The notes beneath the pieces are model-generated. The model was given only the letters and a program-made list of their open reading frames with translations. It was not told the DNA's origin and made no database searches. From Candidatus Forterrea multitransposorum CG_2015-17_Forterrea_25_41 (GTDB lineage Archaea; Iainarchaeota; Iainarchaeia; Iainarchaeales; CSSED10-239), in contig CP045477.1 of assembly GCA_009392915.1 (NCBI GenBank), positions 1 through 64,000 on the forward strand: a stretch of 64,000 nucleotides of DNA. Reading direction: 5' to 3'. The translations under genes were made by a program, and so were the position numbers. Below are positions 2,211 through 55,537 of this stretch, one piece after another; the stretch's first letter is position 1; each line of letters opens with the position of its first letter.

Positions 2211-5093
2211 TTAATCTAACCTCTCTGTTATTTCTTGCATGACCTCTTCTACAAAGAATTGCAATCCATTATATTTTAATATTTTAATAACTTCTTTATT
2301 TGTTTCTTTTTTAATAAGTTCTGCAAATTGCCCTGTTGCATTTCCTTCAATAACTATTATTTTTTTTGCAGATTTAAGTAAGTCTTTTGTTCCAGGATAA
2401 ATTGGATATAATTGTTCATAATGAAGATATTTTATTTTTTTATTATCTATTTTTTCAACAGCTTCTTTAATTGTTTCAAAAGTACTTCCCCATCCAATAA
2501 TAATTATTTCATTACCTTTTCCAATAATTGTTGGCTTTAAACTTTCAAAAGTTATATCTTCTATTCTTTTTAATCTTTTTTTAACCATTTTAATTCTTAA
2601 AGAAAAATCTTCTGTAATATGTCCTGTTTGGTCATGTTCGTCACTATCCACACAAACTAAACCTTTTCCAAAGCCAGGGATTGCTCTAGGGGAAATTCCA
2701 CTTTCTGTAAAAGCATATCTTTGATAATCTTTTTTACTTTCTATAATATATTTTTCTTTATCTTCTTTTATTTCTATTTTTTCAAAAGGATAAAGATTTT
2801 CCATAAAATATTGATCTGTTAATATAAAAACAGGAATTTGGTATTTTTGAGAATCAATAAAAGCTTTGTTTGTAATCTCTACAGCACTTTTTAAATTTTT
2901 AGGAGCATATACAATTCTTGCAAATTCTCCATGTCCAGCGTGCATAACTAAATTTAAATCTTCTTGAGCTGTTCTTGTTGGAAGTCCAGTTGCAGGTCCT
3001 GGTCTTTGAGCTACATGTATGACTAATGGAGTTTCTATCATTCCTGCAAGGCTTACACCTTCACACATAAGTGCAAATCCTCCACCAGATGTGTTTGTAA
3101 GTGATCTTGCACCTGCAAAAGATGCTCCTAAACACATGTTTATTGCTGAAATTTCATCTTCTGCTTGTTCTACAATAATATCAAAATTTTCTCTTAATTT
3201 TGCTAGATTTTGTAAAACACCTGTTGATGGTGACATTGGGTATGCTGATATAAAATCACACCCTCCAGCAATTGCTCCGTATGCTATTGCTTGAGCACCT
3301 GTAAATAAATTATTTAATTTTATTTGTTTATTTTTTTTAATTTTTGGTAAATTTTTAACTATTTTTAAAATTTCTTTTCCTTTTAAAATACCTTTTTCTG
3401 CTGCTTGAATATTTTTTAAAACAATTTCTTTTCCTTTTTTTGAAAAACTTTCTTTTAGTTGTTTTATAAAATATTTTTTATTAATATTTAGTATTCCTAA
3501 AAGAGTTCCTGTTGCAACAGTGTTTGCAAAAACTTTATTTCCTATTTTTTCTGCAATTTCTTTAAAGGAAACATCAATTGTTTTATTTTTAAGCCCTAAT
3601 TTTCTAACTTCTTCTTTATTTCCAATAATAATTGTATTTTCATCAATTCTTTCTTTTAAATGTTCTATAGTATTTTTATCTAAAGCAAGTAAAATATCTA
3701 TTTTTTTTAAATTTCCTCTTCTTTCTTTTTCTGTAAGTCTAATAGATATGGTGTTAACTCCTCCTCTAACTCTTGACATATATTCAGAGTTTGAAGAAAA
3801 GTAAAAACCTTCTTCTTTAAGTATTTTAAGTAAAACATTTTGAACAGATACAAGACCTTGGCCTGCTTCTCCAGAAAGTACAATTGATAATTCTTTTTCA
3901 TCTATTTTTTTATTTTTAATTTCTTTTTTAAAAAGTTCTTTTGTTTTTTCAGTAATTATCTTTGAAAATTCATTTAATTTTTTAAAGTTTTCTTTTTTAG
4001 GAATTCCTGTTGAAATTTCTCCTAAAATAACTTCTGCTTCAAAATTATTTGTAATATTTTCAAATTCTTTAAAGGCTTCCCCACCCCATTCTTTAGATCC
4101 AATAAATCCAATAATTTTTGTTTTTGGTTTTAATTTATTTAAAGTACTAACTGTTGTTGAAACAATAGGGTGAAGCCCACCTAAAAAAGTAGGAGATGCT
4201 ATAATTAAAGTTGACGCATCTACCATTTCAATTGCAAGTTGTCCTATCTCTGTAGTTGTAAGATTATATTCTTTAACTTTATTGCCTTGGTTAATAAGTT
4301 TAGAAGTTAAATATTCAACCATTTTTTTTGTACTTCCGTGCATAGAAGTATACCCAATAATTATTTTTGGTTTGGTTTCTTTTTTTGACCAATTATAGTA
4401 TTTATCAATTATCCAATCAACATCTTGGTATATTTTTCCATGACTTGGAGCTATTATTTTTGGATTATATTCTTTTATTTTTTCTAAGTTTTTAAGAATA
4501 TAATTTCTAAAAGGCATCATTATTTCTGCATAATATCTTTTAGCAGGTAATTCTATTTCTTTTGTATCTTTAACAAATAATTCGCTTGTTGCAAGATGTG
4601 CTCCAAAAAAATCACAAGAAAACAAAATTTTATCTTCTTTTAAAAAAGTAGACATAGTTTCTGGCCAATGAACCCAAGGAGTATAAATAAATTTTAAGGT
4701 TTTATCTCCTAAGCTAATTTCTTCTAAGTCTTTAATAACTTGTATTCTTTTTTCCTCAATTACCATTTCATCTAAAAGTATTTTTTTACAAAGAGGATTA
4801 CAAATTAATTTTGCTTTTGGAAATTTATTTAAAATTATAGGTATTGATCCAGAGTGATCTTGTTCTGCATGATTAGATATAATATAATCTATATTTTTAA
4901 TATTTAATTTTTCTAAGTTTAAAATAAGTTCTTCTGTTTTTGTAATGTCAACAGTGTCTATTAAAGCTGTTTTTTTAGATCCAATTATTAAGTATGAATT
5001 GTAGCTAGTTCCATCTGGAAGATAGATTAGTTCATCAAAAAGCTTTCTATCCCAATCAATGGCTCCAACTGAATATATGTTTTTCTTAATCAT
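2211..5093 (-). CDS. Fusion protein: flavodiiron protein (MBL-like diiron domain plus flavodoxin domain) joined to OFOR gamma and alpha subunits
   Basis: N-terminal ~400 aa carry the FDP diiron ligand motif NHAEQDHSGS and downstream His/Asp ligands, then a flavodoxin-type SMHGSTKKM; a lysine-rich linker; a KorC-like segment (LSGEAGQGLV); a KorA-like segment (TGAQAIAYGAIAGGCDFISAYPMSPST). Single uninterrupted 960-aa ORF. Confidence 0.7.
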   Translation of the reverse strand: MIKKNIYSVGAIDWDRKLFDELIYLPDGTSYNSYLIIGSKKTALIDTVDITKTEELILNLEKLNIKNIDYIISNHAEQDHSGSIPIILNKFPKAKLICNPLCKKILLDEMVIEEKRIQVIKDLEEISLGDKTLKFIYTPWVHWPETMSTFLKEDKILFSCDFFGAHLATSELFVKDTKEIELPAKRYYAEIMMPFRNYILKNLEKIKEYNPKIIAPSHGKIYQDVDWIIDKYYNWSKKETKPKIIIGYTSMHGSTKKMVEYLTSKLINQGNKVKEYNLTTTEIGQLAIEMVDASTLIIASPTFLGGLHPIVSTTVSTLNKLKPKTKIIGFIGSKEWGGEAFKEFENITNNFEAEVILGEISTGIPKKENFKKLNEFSKIITEKTKELFKKEIKNKKIDEKELSIVLSGEAGQGLVSVQNVLLKILKEEGFYFSSNSEYMSRVRGGVNTISIRLTEKERRGNLKKIDILLALDKNTIEHLKERIDENTIIIGNKEEVRKLGLKNKTIDVSFKEIAEKIGNKVFANTVATGTLLGILNINKKYFIKQLKESFSKKGKEIVLKNIQAAEKGILKGKEILKIVKNLPKIKKNKQIKLNNLFTGAQAIAYGAIAGGCDFISAYPMSPSTGVLQNLAKLRENFDIIVEQAEDEISAINMCLGASFAGARSLTNTSGGGFALMCEGVSLAGMIETPLVIHVAQRPGPATGLPTRTAQEDLNLVMHAGHGEFARIVYAPKNLKSAVEITNKAFIDSQKYQIPVFILTDQYFMENLYPFEKIEIKEDKEKYIIESKKDYQRYAFTESGISPRAIPGFGKGLVCVDSDEHDQTGHITEDFSLRIKMVKKRLKRIEDITFESLKPTIIGKGNEIIIIGWGSTFETIKEAVEKIDNKKIKYLHYEQLYPIYPGTKDLLKSAKKIIVIEGNATGQFAELIKKETNKEVIKILKYNGLQFFVEEVMQEITERLD

Positions 5094-16297: not shown

Positions 16298-18844
16298 GTG
16301 TTTTTTATGGATGATGCAAATTTAATGCTTTTAAAAAAGAAAGTAAAAGCTATAAAACAATATAAAGGCCAAGGTACTCAACTTATAAGTCTTTATCTTC
16401 CACCTGATGCAGATAGAAGTTCTGCAACAAAACAATTAACTGATGAAATGAGTCAATCTTCAAATATTAAGAGTGCTCAGACTAGAAAAAATGTACAAGC
16501 AGCTTTAAAAAGAATTATTAATTATTTAAAACAAATTGATTTTAAACTTCCTGAAACAGGTTTAGTTTTATTTTCTGGAGATGTTTCAACTAATCCTTCT
16601 AAATCAGATGTAATTTTACTTGCAATTGCACCTCCTGTAAGACTTACAACTAAGCTTTATTGGTGTGATTCAACATTTCACATAGCTCCTTTAGAAGATA
16701 TGGCACAAACAGATGATGTTTATGGTTTAGTTGTTCTTGACAAACGAGAAGCAACAGTTGCTATTTTAAGAGGAAAATCTAAAGAAATTCTTTTTTCAGA
16801 AACCTCAAATGTTCCTGGTAAAACAAAAGCCGGGGGGCAATGTTTAAAAGATGCTTTTGTATCTTTATCTGATGGGAATTTAATAGATGTTAGTGAAATT
16901 TCTAAAAAGGATATTCTTTCTTCTATGAATTTTAAACAAAATAAATTAATTAATTCTAAGGTTTTAGATAATTGGTCAGTTTCTAAAAATAAAACATATA
17001 TTATTAAAACAAAAGCTCCTGGTACAGAAATAAAAGCTAGTGAAGATCATATATTTTTTGTTTTAACTCCAGATGGTGTTGTTGAAAAAGCTTCAAAAGA
17101 TTTAACTTTAAATGATTATTTGTTATTTCCAGAAAAATTATCTTATAAAAATAAAATTTGGTCTTTTGATACTAAAAAATATATTTCTAAATTAAATAAA
17201 CCTTCTATAAAGATACCTATAAAACTTAATAATGTATTTGCTAAATTTTTAGGTTATTTATTAGGTGATGGTTCTATTGAAACTGATAGATTAACTTTTT
17301 ATGAATCTAGAAAAGATGTTATTTTAGAATATAAAAAGTTATTTGATAAATATTTTAATGTAAATTCTTCTTTAACTTTTAGAGATTCTAAAAATTATTA
17401 TCAATTAAGAGTTAATTCAACTGCTCTTGTAAGATTAATTAAAGAAGAATTTAAGGAAATTAAAAAAGCAAGAGATTCTTTAATACCTTCTAAAATATTA
17501 ACTTCTTCTAATAAAATATTAGCTAATTTTTTAAAAGGATTTTATGATGCTGAAGGTTATATTAATACTTCTAGAAAATCAATAGATATTGGAATAAATA
17601 ATAAAAAAATTGCACAACAACTTCAATTATCATTATTAAGATTTTCAATTATTGGATCTTTACAAGAATATGATAATAAACAAAATCCTTATACAAATAA
17701 CCATAGGTTTGTGATTTCAATTTCTGATAAAGAGTCAATAGATTCTTTTGAAAAAAATATTAATTTTACTTCTTTTGAAAAGCAAAAAAAAATAAAAAAA
17801 ATTCAAAAATTAAAAACAAACATGAGTTTCTCAAGAACACTTCCTGTATATGGTAGTCAGGTTAGATCTGTTGTTACAAAACATGGTTATAATTTAGAAC
17901 TTTTCCCAAAAGTGAGTAGTTTTTTCAATAATAATAGAATGCTTAGTAAATGCTTTTTTAAAAGTTCTGTTTTAGATTATGTTAAAGATAAATCTCTTTT
18001 AAAAGATTTAATTAAATTTTATAATATGCCATTTTTTGCTGCAAAGATAAATTCTATATTTATTGAAAAAAAGAAAACAATTATGACAGACATTTCTGTT
18101 GCTAATAAATCTTTTATTGCAAATGGATTAATTGTTCATAATTCAGCACATAGATTCGAAAGACTAAGAGATAAATATGAAGAAGAGTTTTATAAGAGAG
18201 TAGGTTCTAAAGTAAATACTGCTTTTGTAGATCTTGATAATTTTAAAGGAATGATTGTTGGTGGTCCTGGACTTACTAAAAATGAATTTTTAGAAATTGG
18301 TGATTTAGACCACAGAATAAAAGATAAAGTTTTAGGAACTGTAGATACTTCTTATACAGATGAGTCAGGTATAAAAGAAGTTTTAGATAAATCTGAAGAT
18401 ATTTTAAAAGAAACTGGTTTAGTTCATGAAAGAAAATTAATTAATAAGTTTTTTGAAGACTTAGCAAAAACAGGCCTTGCAAATTATGGTTTTCAAGATG
18501 TAATTGATGCCTTAAATATTGGTAAAGCTTCAACTGTTTTAGTGTCTGAAGGTTTAGAATGGACTGTTTTAATTTTTAAATGTTTATCAGACAAATCTAG
18601 ATTTATAAAAATTGTTAAAGATAAACATGAAGTTTCTGATACTATCTCAAAATTTGAAAATTCTCCAACAGATTGTCCAGAAGGTAAAGCAGAACTTGTT
18701 GAAGAAGTTGATATATATGATTATTTTATAGATATTTCTAAAAATACAAGTGCAAAAGTTGAACTTATTTCTATTGAAACTTTAGAAGGTAAACAATTTT
18801 TTGAAACTTTTGGAGGGCTTGCAGCTTTCTTAAGATATAGGTAA
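16298..18844 (+). CDS. prf1: Peptide chain release factor aRF1 interrupted by an intein
   Basis: NIKS motif (SSNIKSAQ), GGQ motif immediately followed by the intein's Cys; C-extein SAHRFERLR... is the aRF1 continuation; the exteins sum to 414 aa. Confidence 0.85.
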   Translation: MFFMDDANLMLLKKKVKAIKQYKGQGTQLISLYLPPDADRSSATKQLTDEMSQSSNIKSAQTRKNVQAALKRIINYLKQIDFKLPETGLVLFSGDVSTNPSKSDVILLAIAPPVRLTTKLYWCDSTFHIAPLEDMAQTDDVYGLVVLDKREATVAILRGKSKEILFSETSNVPGKTKAGGQCLKDAFVSLSDGNLIDVSEISKKDILSSMNFKQNKLINSKVLDNWSVSKNKTYIIKTKAPGTEIKASEDHIFFVLTPDGVVEKASKDLTLNDYLLFPEKLSYKNKIWSFDTKKYISKLNKPSIKIPIKLNNVFAKFLGYLLGDGSIETDRLTFYESRKDVILEYKKLFDKYFNVNSSLTFRDSKNYYQLRVNSTALVRLIKEEFKEIKKARDSLIPSKILTSSNKILANFLKGFYDAEGYINTSRKSIDIGINNKKIAQQLQLSLLRFSIIGSLQEYDNKQNPYTNNHRFVISISDKESIDSFEKNINFTSFEKQKKIKKIQKLKTNMSFSRTLPVYGSQVRSVVTKHGYNLELFPKVSSFFNNNRMLSKCFFKSSVLDYVKDKSLLKDLIKFYNMPFFAAKINSIFIEKKKTIMTDISVANKSFIANGLIVHNSAHRFERLRDKYEEEFYKRVGSKVNTAFVDLDNFKGMIVGGPGLTKNEFLEIGDLDHRIKDKVLGTVDTSYTDESGIKEVLDKSEDILKETGLVHERKLINKFFEDLAKTGLANYGFQDVIDALNIGKASTVLVSEGLEWTVLIFKCLSDKSRFIKIVKDKHEVSDTISKFENSPTDCPEGKAELVEEVDIYDYFIDISKNTSAKVELISIETLEGKQFFETFGGLAAFLRYR
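16841..18142 (+). mobile_element. Intein (434 aa) with LAGLIDADG homing-endonuclease domain, inserted in the aRF1 GGQ motif
   Basis: Begins with Cys right after AGGQ, ends with HN followed by Ser; LAGLIDADG-like blocks LGYLLGDGSI and LKGFYDAEGYI. Confidence 0.8.
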
Positions 18845-37617: not shown

Positions 37618-37699
37618 GCAGAGGTGGCGGAGTGGTCAAACGCGCCAGCCTTGAGAGCTGGAGCCTTGCGCTACACGAGTTCGAATCTCGTCCTCTGCG
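37618..37699 (+). tRNA. tRNA-Ser (anticodon UGA)
   Basis: Cloverleaf with acceptor stem GCAGAGG/CCTCTGC, anticodon loop CUUGAGA, long variable arm, T-arm ACGAG-TTCGAAT-CTCGT; no encoded CCA. Confidence 0.8.
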
Positions 37700-37730
37700 C
37701 TTTATCTTTTAAAATATAGGAATTTTTATT

Positions 37731-38063
37731 ATGATTAAAGAAAACATTTCTTTTCAAGATTTTTTAAAACTTGATATAAGAATTGGAACAATTGTTGAGG
37801 CTGAAGCTGTTGAGGGTTCTGATAAATTAATAAAATTAATAATTGATTTTAAAGATTTTAAAAGACAGATTTTAGCTGGTATTAAAACAAAATATCAACC
37901 AACTGATTTATTAAACAAACAAATTCCTGTTATTGTAAATTTAGAACCTAGAAAAATGATGGGTTTTGAAAGTCAAGGAATGATCTTAGCTGTTGGAGAT
38001 AAAACTTTAGATGCTTTACTTTTACCATCTGAGCCTGTATCGGAAGGCTCGATTGTACACTAA
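37731..38063 (+). CDS. tRNA-binding domain protein (CsaA/Trbp111/EMAP-like OB fold)
   Basis: LDIRIGTIVEAEAVEGSDKL ... PVIVNLEPRKMMGFESQGMILAV is the canonical Myf/tRNA-binding domain signature; 110 aa. Confidence 0.75.
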   Translation: MIKENISFQDFLKLDIRIGTIVEAEAVEGSDKLIKLIIDFKDFKRQILAGIKTKYQPTDLLNKQIPVIVNLEPRKMMGFESQGMILAVGDKTLDALLLPSEPVSEGSIVH

Positions 38064-38084
38064 TTTTTTTTTAAAACTAAAAAT

Positions 38085-38166
38085 GCAGAGGTGGCGGAGT
38101 GGTCAAACGCGCAAGCCTGGAAAGCTTGAGCCTCGTGCTACGCGAGTTCGAATCTCGTCCTCTGCG
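38085..38166 (+). tRNA. tRNA-Ser (anticodon GGA)
   Basis: Near-identical backbone to tRNA-Ser(UGA); anticodon loop CUGGAAA. Confidence 0.8.
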
Positions 38167-38197
38167 CTTTTTTCTTTTTTAATTTAATATTTATTTT

Positions 38198-38286
38198 GCA
38201 GAGATGGCGGAGTGGTCAAACGCACAAGTTTCGAAAACTTGATTAAGGTTTTTTCCTTTACATGAGTTCAAATCTCATTCTCTGCG
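38198..38286 (+). tRNA. tRNA-Ser (anticodon CGA)
   Basis: Acceptor GCAGAGA/TCTCTGC, anticodon loop UUCGAAA, ~20-nt variable arm with AAGG/CCTT stem, T-arm ATGAG-TTCAAAT-CTCAT. Confidence 0.7.
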
Positions 38287-38462
38287 TAGCTGGTTTCGGT
38301 CAGCTAGCACCCAATGATTTTGCGTTTGTTAACGCTTATTTAAACTTTCTTTTTAAAAGAAGTGATTTTCCCCCAAAACTTTTTTTCTTTAAAAATTGTG
38401 TTTTAAAAATTTTTAATCTATTTTATATCTATTTAAAATACTTTTGCCTCTCTTTAATATTT

Positions 38463-55211: not shown

Positions 55212-55327
55212 GTTAGCGGCCATAGGGATGGAGAAACACCTGGACCCTTTCCGAACCCAGAAGTTAAGTCTATTGCCGTTTTAGTTCGCTGTTAGTTCAT
55301 GCTAGTAGCGTCTTTAAAGCTGCTAAC
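55212..55327 (+). rRNA. 5S ribosomal RNA
   Basis: GTTAGCGGCCATAGGGATGGAGAAACACCTGGACCCTTTCCGAACCCAGAAGTTAAGTC matches the 5S helices I-III/loop C consensus; terminal helix pairs GTTAGCGGC with GCTGCTAAC; AT-rich divergent 3' half. Confidence 0.75.
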
Positions 55328-55537
55328 ATTTAATATTTTCTATTTTATAAAAAAGAATTATTAAAAGCTATTTTTTTTAAAAATAATTTTTCTACAAGCA
55401 AAACTTATTTTTTTATAAATAATTTAGTTCTTGTTTAGATAAACTTAAATTAAATCTATTTTTTAAAATTAAATATCTTTTAATATATTTCCCTACACAT
55501 TTATTTATTATAATTATTTATTTAAGGGGAAAAATAT

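Follow-up and report, generated by a model that had tools for sequence, protein, structure and literature searches.

Described inteins closest to the aRF1 insertion

Among the described inteins that interrupt a catalytic motif of an essential protein are TliVMA and PhoVMA (7qss, 7qsu, 7qst), which reside in the A subunit of the Thermococcales V-ATPase and combine a Hint splicing domain with a double-LAGLIDADG homing endonuclease. In both sequence and fold (phmmer E 4e-11), they are the best match to an insertion that we analyzed in the gene that encodes aRF1, the translation-termination factor of archaea, in Candidatus Forterrea multitransposorum CG_2015-17_Forterrea_25_41. The gene lies within the stretch of DNA referred to here as the window, i.e., positions 1 to 64,000 of contig CP045477.1 (assembly GCA_009392915.1). 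The window intein has the same domain layout and is likewise sited in a catalytic motif; however, it occupies a different host protein and site, is 14–16% identical to the V-ATPase inteins in the structural alignment, and comes from a mesophile-like DPANN genome of 25% GC.

PI-PfuI (1dq3; Foldseek E 2.5e-23) and PI-TkoII (2cw7; 6.7e-17) are, like the window intein, archaeal, class 1 and of the LAGLIDADG type. Both have an extra domain between their endonuclease and splicing lobes; the extra region of the window intein is all-helical (residues ~312–395). Their hosts are enzymes of nucleotide and DNA metabolism, not translation factors. PI-SceI, the yeast VMA1 intein and the paradigm for homing (Foldseek E ~1e-13), follows the same logic of splicing and of homing into empty alleles, but has a eukaryotic host, homes in meiosis, and matches the predicted structure with a template modeling score (TM) of only ~0.48.

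A core translation factor is also the host of the archaeal IF-2 (aIF5B) inteins, although that factor acts in initiation and aRF1 acts in termination; the strongest NCBIfam match of the insert (E 1e-16) is to the intein portion of PRK14845, a model of IF-2. The IF-2 inteins are inserted at a different motif, within the GTPase domain and not in a loop for peptidyl-tRNA hydrolysis. Among the archaeal intein hosts listed in one survey is aIF2 (PMC4760082). The nearest relatives recovered outside aRF1 are inteins of GlmS, the glutamine-fructose-6-phosphate aminotransferase (P0023, E 5e-16, and L083). These are also LAGLIDADG-containing class-1 inteins, ending ...HN/S or ...SN/S (slashes mark intein borders throughout), but they are ~30% identical to the window intein and have a metabolic enzyme as host.

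A class-1 intein between Gln and Ser of the GGQS loop

A first-pass annotation, made from the DNA letters and a list of open reading frames (ORFs), had placed a LAGLIDADG intein at 16841–18142, starting with Cys directly after GGQ and ending ...VHN before SAHRFERLR, and these borders proved exact to the base (Table 1). The insert comprises 1302 nucleotides (nt), i.e., 434 codons, in frame and stop-free within one ORF. Upstream, the codons GGG GGG CAA (G-G-Q) precede TGT (Cys1, 16841–16843); downstream, CAT (His433) and AAT (Asn434, 18140–18142) are followed by TCA (Ser+1, 18143–18145) and by GCA CAT AGA TTC (Ala-His-Arg-Phe). GGQ forms the last three residues of the N-extein and becomes contiguous with S-A-H-R-F only once the precursor is spliced. 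The GC content of the intein is 21.0%, as against 31.1% and 27.6% for the two exteins.

The host assignment rests on a match to the NCBIfam model TIGR03676 (aRF1_eRF1) well above its curated cut-off (416.5 vs. 234.7 bits), which the insert splits in two, on Pfam matches of the exteins to all three eRF1 domains (eRF1_1, eRF1_2 in two stretches, and eRF1_3), and on the presence of the NIKS, YxCxxxF and GGQ motifs. Domain 3 carries a lineage-specific insertion. Most relatives use the start that corresponds to the ATG at 16307, and an alternative GTG lies upstream at 16298. Because the same 845-residue protein (0–1 substitutions) recurs in independent NCBI, JGI and ENA assemblies, with the exact sequence on 16 contigs, the longest of 839,632 bp, the intein-interrupted aRF1 is not an assembly artifact.

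Table 1. Positions of the aRF1 gene, its exteins and the parts of its intein in the window. A2 is an alignment of 12 aRF1 inteins at 27–50% identity; residue numbers are those of the intein, except for the two extein motifs.
Feature	Position	Strand	Basis
aRF1 precursor gene, 845 codons + stop	16307–18844	+	ORF list; TIGR03676 aRF1_eRF1, E 1e-124, two stretches
N-extein, 178 residues, domain 1 and start of domain 2, ends ...VPGKTKAGGQ	16307–16840	+	Pfam eRF1_1; alignment to 4af1_A
NIKS motif in N-extein, residue 53	16463–16474	+	motif coordinates
YxCxxxF motif in N-extein (YWCDSTF), residue 118	16658–16678	+	motif coordinates
Intein, aRF1 GGQ site, 434 residues	16841–18142	+	Pfam Intein_splicing, LAGLIDADG_3; AlphaFold; Foldseek
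Splicing block A, CLKDAFVSLSDG; Cys1 (16841–16843), N-terminal nucleophile	16841–16876	+	C1 and G12 invariant in A2
Splicing block B, S67-E-D-H70 (TxxH with Ser for Thr)	17039–17050	+	H70 invariant in A2; Ser or Thr at this position in aligned relatives
Predicted homing-endonuclease core, residues ~131–306, two alpha-beta-beta-alpha-beta-beta-alpha halves	17231–17758	+	DSSP of model; Foldseek I-DmoI, I-Tsp061I
LAGLIDADG motif 1, FAKFLGYLLGDGS, residues 133–145; catalytic Asp143 (17267–17269)	17237–17275	+	G142, D143, G144 invariant in A2
LAGLIDADG motif 2, LANFLKGFYDAEGY, residues 227–240; catalytic Glu238 (17552–17554)	17519–17560	+	D236, A237 invariant, E238, G239 at least 90% in A2
Predicted helical region, residues ~312–395, between endonuclease and C-terminal splicing lobe	17774–18025	+	AlphaFold model
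Splicing blocks F and G, TDISVANKSFIANGLIVHN; Asp417, His433, Asn434	18086–18142	+	D417, F425, N428, H433, N434 invariant in A2
C-extein, 233 residues, starts at Ser+1 (SAHRFERLR...), rest of domain 2 and domain 3	18143–18841	+	Pfam eRF1_2, eRF1_3; gap-free alignment to 4af1_A

Three lines of evidence, taken together, identify the insert as an intein. First, the residues of a class-1 intein are complete (Cys1, S67xxH70, Asp417, His433-Asn434 and Ser+1), and Pfam Intein_splicing matches the insert far beyond chance, with E 7e-18 (65.3 bits vs. a cut-off of 35.8).

Second, the predicted fold is that of a Hint domain with a LAGLIDADG endonuclease. An AlphaFold2 model computed from the family alignment scored a pLDDT of 94.2 and a pTM of 0.93, and its top Foldseek matches in the PDB are all solved endonuclease-containing inteins: 7qss TliVMA (E 5e-25, TM 0.75), 1dq3 PI-PfuI, 2cw7 PI-TkoII and PI-SceI. 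The modeled endonuclease core also matches the free-standing I-DmoI, as well as I-Tsp061I (TMt 0.65–0.72). Pfam LAGLIDADG_3 is matched in two stretches (E 2e-18; 66.6 bits vs. a cut-off of 22.5), and both LAGLIDADG blocks that the first-pass annotation had reported are present, their ends reading LLGD143G and YDAE238G, with each helix closing on its catalytic acid. The helical region that follows, modeled as helices 312–324, 338–347, 356–362, 370–376 and 384–394, is conserved across the family, with a ratio of nonsynonymous to synonymous substitution (omega) of 0.07–0.27 over residues 321–405, and is probably an accessory DNA-contact domain.

Third, the junction is seamless, both against a solved aRF1 and against intein-free alleles. 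The first-pass annotation had proposed an extein-only alignment and a search for an empty allele in related genomes, and held that the insertion would be disproved if the inserted region aligned to genuine aRF1 sequence, which it does not. The aRF1 of 411 residues spliced in silico aligns to 4af1_A with E 5e-80 and no gap at the junction (vpgktkaGGQSahRFeRLR in the spliced window protein, vpgkqrkGGQSAqRFaRLR in 4af1_A). A search with the spliced exteins returned intein-free relatives of exactly 411 residues (P0028 at 92% identity, P0029 at 87%, P0030 at 80% and P0031–33 at 74–79%). The closest of these, P0028, lies on JGI contig L001, where the gene order of the window is kept: a DUF87 protein of 515 residues, a PRTase of 155 residues, a short ORF, aRF1, a 168-residue ORF and a ~420-residue ORF annotated as TruD in relatives. 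In that contig the empty site reads GGTGGTCAA followed directly by TCAGCACAT; the same uninterrupted site, at other extents, reads ...GCTGGTGGTCAA joined to TCAGCACATCGT... and ...AAAGCTGGTGGTCAA joined to TCAGCACATCGTTTT....

We therefore regard it as very probable, judging from sequence and predicted structure, that the insert, sited between Gln and Ser of the aRF1 GGQS loop, is a class-1 intein of the canonical kind whose homing endonuclease belongs to the double-motif LAGLIDADG type, and that it splices and homes as follows. The 845-residue precursor would be translated, and Cys1 would make an N–S acyl shift, as the conserved residues suggest; Ser+1 would attack the resulting thioester; Asn434, helped by His433, would cyclize and release the intein; and an O–N shift would yield the 411-residue aRF1 with its GGQ loop intact, i.e., with the GGQ-S sequence whose regeneration had been foreseen from the DNA. 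In the unspliced precursor, an insert of ~50 kDa would break the peptidyl-tRNA hydrolysis loop while leaving the stop-codon-reading domain uninterrupted; since the loop stays interrupted until splicing, release activity would depend on splicing. The freed intein, also of ~50 kDa, would act as a site-specific endonuclease, cutting aRF1 alleles that lack the intein where their DNA encodes GGQ, and repair would then copy the intein into the cut allele.

If so, a translation-termination factor joins the hosts of inteins, and the catalytic GGQ loop joins their insertion sites. The GGQ site of aRF1 accords with the rule that intein insertion favors the best-conserved DNA of active sites. The aRF1 intein is an addition to intein biology, to DPANN annotation and to questions of gene flow; it implies no new mechanism.

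Probable mobility of the intein and alternative readings

The first-pass annotation had suggested that the intein may be mobile within its lineage and that its endonuclease may be active. Several comparisons among relatives agree with recent mobility. In a neighbor-joining tree of the exteins, intein-bearing and intein-free alleles are interleaved: the window and L002 (both intein-bearing) group with the intein-free P0028, L004 (bearing) with P0029 (free), L009 (bearing) with P0036 and P0039 (both free), and L020 (bearing) with P0038 (free). The intein and extein histories are also discordant. Between the window and L002, nucleotide identity is 95–96% in the exteins and 82% in the intein, and synonymous divergence (dS) is 0.22 and 0.58, respectively; between L002 and L004 the pattern is reversed, with 81–86% identity in the exteins and 95% in the intein, and dS of 0.77 and 0.19. 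Measured in 89-nt segments, identity switches at the intein borders. Interleaved alleles, discordant histories and breakpoints at the intein borders argue that the intein has been mobile recently.

In addition, we found all stages of the homing cycle at this site: empty alleles, inteins with an intact endonuclease, inteins with a decayed endonuclease (P0034, in which motif 1 is gone, as is the acidic residue of motif 2, and P0021, which is truncated), and mini-inteins of 130–135 residues (P0024, P0025 and P0027). With empty, occupied and decayed alleles as well as mini-inteins, this one gene offers a natural system for the study of the homing cycle. Inteins from distant hosts (Woesearchaeota and Nanoarchaeota, e.g., P0001, P0014 and P0015) are 51–55% identical to the window intein, while the corresponding C-exteins are 39–42% identical. 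Because the intein outpaces the extein in divergence among close relatives, this similarity suggests transfer across lineages. As to a viral or plasmid vehicle, searches of IMG/VR and of GenBank phages gave only distant inteins (at most 32% identity), in hosts such as terminase and RecA.

The sharp mosaic of intein and extein histories among near-identical Iainarchaeum hosts is direct evidence, at the sequence level, that DPANN populations have recently exchanged and recombined DNA. Gene flow in these populations is poorly documented.

Some observations nevertheless weigh against the splicing and homing account. Block B has Ser instead of the usual Thr, although its His is invariant. The trees are neighbor-joining trees without support values. 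Stronger codon constraint in the exteins could partly explain the excess of intein dS between the window and L002, although it would not account for the reversed pattern between L002 and L004. Finally, L002, the nearest intein-bearing relative, has two in-frame stops (TAA TAG) in its endonuclease domain at ~1183–1188 (corresponding to window 17441–17446, where the window reads AAA GAA and L004 reads AAA GAG), so that at least one copy of the intein may be broken or mis-assembled. If real, this tandem stop would cut an essential aRF1 short; an assembly artifact, a dead allele or something stranger could lie behind it.

The decayed endonucleases and mini-inteins of other lineages, and the stops in L002, are also what one would expect if the window intein still spliced but its endonuclease were inactive, leaving a fixed, vertically inherited passenger of the lineage. 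We consider this unlikely. The window copy keeps both catalytic acids, Asp143 and Glu238, and all endonuclease positions that are invariant in the family; over residues 111–320, omega is 0.09–0.21, a value that indicates purifying selection and would be expected only with selection on endonuclease function, either ongoing or very recent; and the mosaic breakpoints at the intein borders, together with intein-free sister alleles, are hard to explain without recent transfer. An active homing endonuclease in the window copy, as first proposed, accordingly has indirect support, and homing remains the account that we prefer.

A reading that we hold to be considerably less probable is that the intein, besides being selfish, serves as a conditional switch, an environmental signal gating its splicing and hence peptide release, with the precursor as a competitor that binds stop codons but is dead for hydrolysis. 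The insertion does break the catalytic loop while sparing domain 3 and the domain that recognizes stop codons (NIKS, YxCxxxF), and conditional splicing is documented in other archaeal inteins. However, we saw no sensor-like sequence feature in the intein, and its patchy presence among near-identical hosts makes it apparently dispensable to them. Equally speculative is a splicing-gated form of termination, in which the precursor, its domains for reading stop codons and for binding partners being intact, would sit on stop codons without releasing the peptide and the termination capacity of the cell would be tied to the rate of splicing, as a post-translational throttle or an addiction module. 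Were this improbable scheme true, it could help to explain why the site is retained across many DPANN lineages, endonuclease-free mini-inteins included. We also considered a redox or disulfide switch and rejected it: besides Cys1, the intein has only Cys371, which is not conserved in the family.

That the insertion does not splice, or that this aRF1 is a pseudogene and another gene terminates translation, is very improbable: NCBI calls the product a hypothetical protein and a second aRF1 could lie beyond the 64-kb window, but the ORF is intact over its 845 codons, omega in the exteins is 0.03 against the closest relative, all splicing residues are conserved, 78 of the 80 species genomes that match best retain the arrangement, and synteny with the intein-free ortholog is conserved.

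Distribution, annotation and further observations

Run exhaustively against 1.84 billion representative sequences, phmmer gave 2432 matches at E ≤1e-3, 61 of them at ≤1e-30. Among the top 150, 59 of 145 newly returned proteins were aRF1 interrupted by an intein at this very site. When one genome per GTDB species was scanned, at least 243 relatives were confirmed; the hosts of the best 80 matches are aRF1 ORFs in 78 cases, and every readable junction among these 80 has the form GGx/C...HN/S. The intein-bearing relatives are titled Candidatus Iainarchaeum/Diapherotrites, Woesearchaeota, Nanoarchaeota, Pacearchaeota, Aenigmatarchaeota and Micrarchaeota, and include the complete genome CP058998; the closest match among those listed, at 78% identity, is from a Candidatus Iainarchaeum metagenome-assembled genome and places the window in Iainarchaeota.

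The GGQ-site intein is thus widespread in public DPANN genomes, yet unannotated. The window protein has a public record, NCP72471.1, under the name "hypothetical protein GW835_03730 [archaeon]", and the records of relatives carry either "LAGLIDADG family homing endonuclease, partial" or, again, "hypothetical protein" as their name. Among the NCBIfam matches, intein-aware "exception" models appeared for GyrA and two radical-SAM proteins, and none for aRF1. With intein-split genes unannotated, automated surveys could wrongly score aRF1 as missing in reduced DPANN genomes.

The intein itself is canonical; what we did not find described in the literature searched is its aRF1 host and GGQ site. Searches combining intein with aRF1, eRF1, release factor, GGQ or DPANN returned no description of an intein in a release factor. 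A giant-virus paper that names both inteins and a release factor draws no link between them, a paper on Anaeramoeba inteins mentions neither eRF1 nor GGQ, and the survey of archaeal inteins (PMC4760082) has no word on release factors in its main text. The first-pass statement that aRF1 is outside the commonly listed intein hosts therefore stands as regards this literature, but the rarity that it implied does not, given the spread of the intein among DPANN.

Within the window intein, positions 17776–17812 form a long A-rich tract, GAAAAGCAAAAAAAAAATAAAAAAAATTCAAAAA. Another assembly splits the window gene into two ORFs (P0420 and P0423) exactly at this tract; the break probably reflects an error in sequencing the homopolymer and, as such, a source of mis-annotation. 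A split intein was considered, since gene callers halve the genes of relatives, and rejected: the break in L003 is a scaffold gap of 12 N and that between P0420 and P0423 falls at the poly-A tract, although the tandem stop of L002 is not explained in this way.

Most inteins at the GGQ site of aRF1 are longer than that of the window, at ~505 residues, and have an extra XRE-type helix-turn-helix (HTH) domain (Pfam HTH_3, HTH_19, HTH_31) that separates the N-terminal splicing lobe from the endonuclease. Such inteins include P0001, P0002, P0003, P0010, P0013, P0017 and P0020, as well as most of the ~500–510-residue inteins in L005–L066; the 434-residue window intein has no HTH domain. A second intein site in aRF1 lies just before the conserved Cys of YxCxxxF (YLYM/C...VHN/CDDHYH). 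It is occupied in P0211 (residues ~124–367), in P0215 and in L082 (a 1456-residue aRF1 ORF from position 406, labeled Thaumarchaeota), and a GGQ-site intein co-occurs.

While the window aRF1 has GGQ, many DPANN aRF1 proteins replace this "universal" motif by GGW, GGF or GGM, with SQxRY coming next, whether an intein is present or absent. They belong to a Woesearchaeial/Nanoarchaeial clade and to some Aenigmatarchaeota; examples are the intein-free P0295–P0320, and P0157, P0169, P0178, P0189–P0197, L058, L060, L070, L072, L080, L081 and L121 (6001–7092). A spliced Woesearchaeal query returned 30 intein-free matches with GGW or GGF. P0309 (GGW, on L121) and P0336 (GGQ, on L122) share a gene neighborhood—an aaRS, aRF1, ScpB, and, after further genes, a GT2 glycosyltransferase and, again after further genes, an HTH protein and a methyltransferase—and because of this shared neighborhood we regard the GGW and GGQ genes as orthologs, not paralogs. 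The idea that the intein caused the loss of GGQ was discarded, as syntenic orthologs that lack the intein read GGW and GGF as well. We found no literature on aRF1 proteins with GGW, GGF or GGM.

No other intein was found in the eight other large ORFs of the window or in the two short neighbors of aRF1. The minus strand beneath the aRF1 region has no ORF of at least 80 residues in the ORF list, and Rfam, at its gathering threshold, reports no RNA feature under this region, its only matches in the window being three tRNAs and a 5S rRNA elsewhere. On the minus strand at 2211–5093, a 960-residue ORF of unusual architecture joins an ODP/metallo-beta-lactamase domain and a weak flavodoxin match to pyruvate:ferredoxin oxidoreductase domains (POR, POR_N, PFOR_II). 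The three tRNA genes, all tRNA-Ser (anticodons TGA, GGA and CGA), lie within 670 nt of each other at 37618–38287, and the 5S rRNA gene stands alone at 55212–55328.

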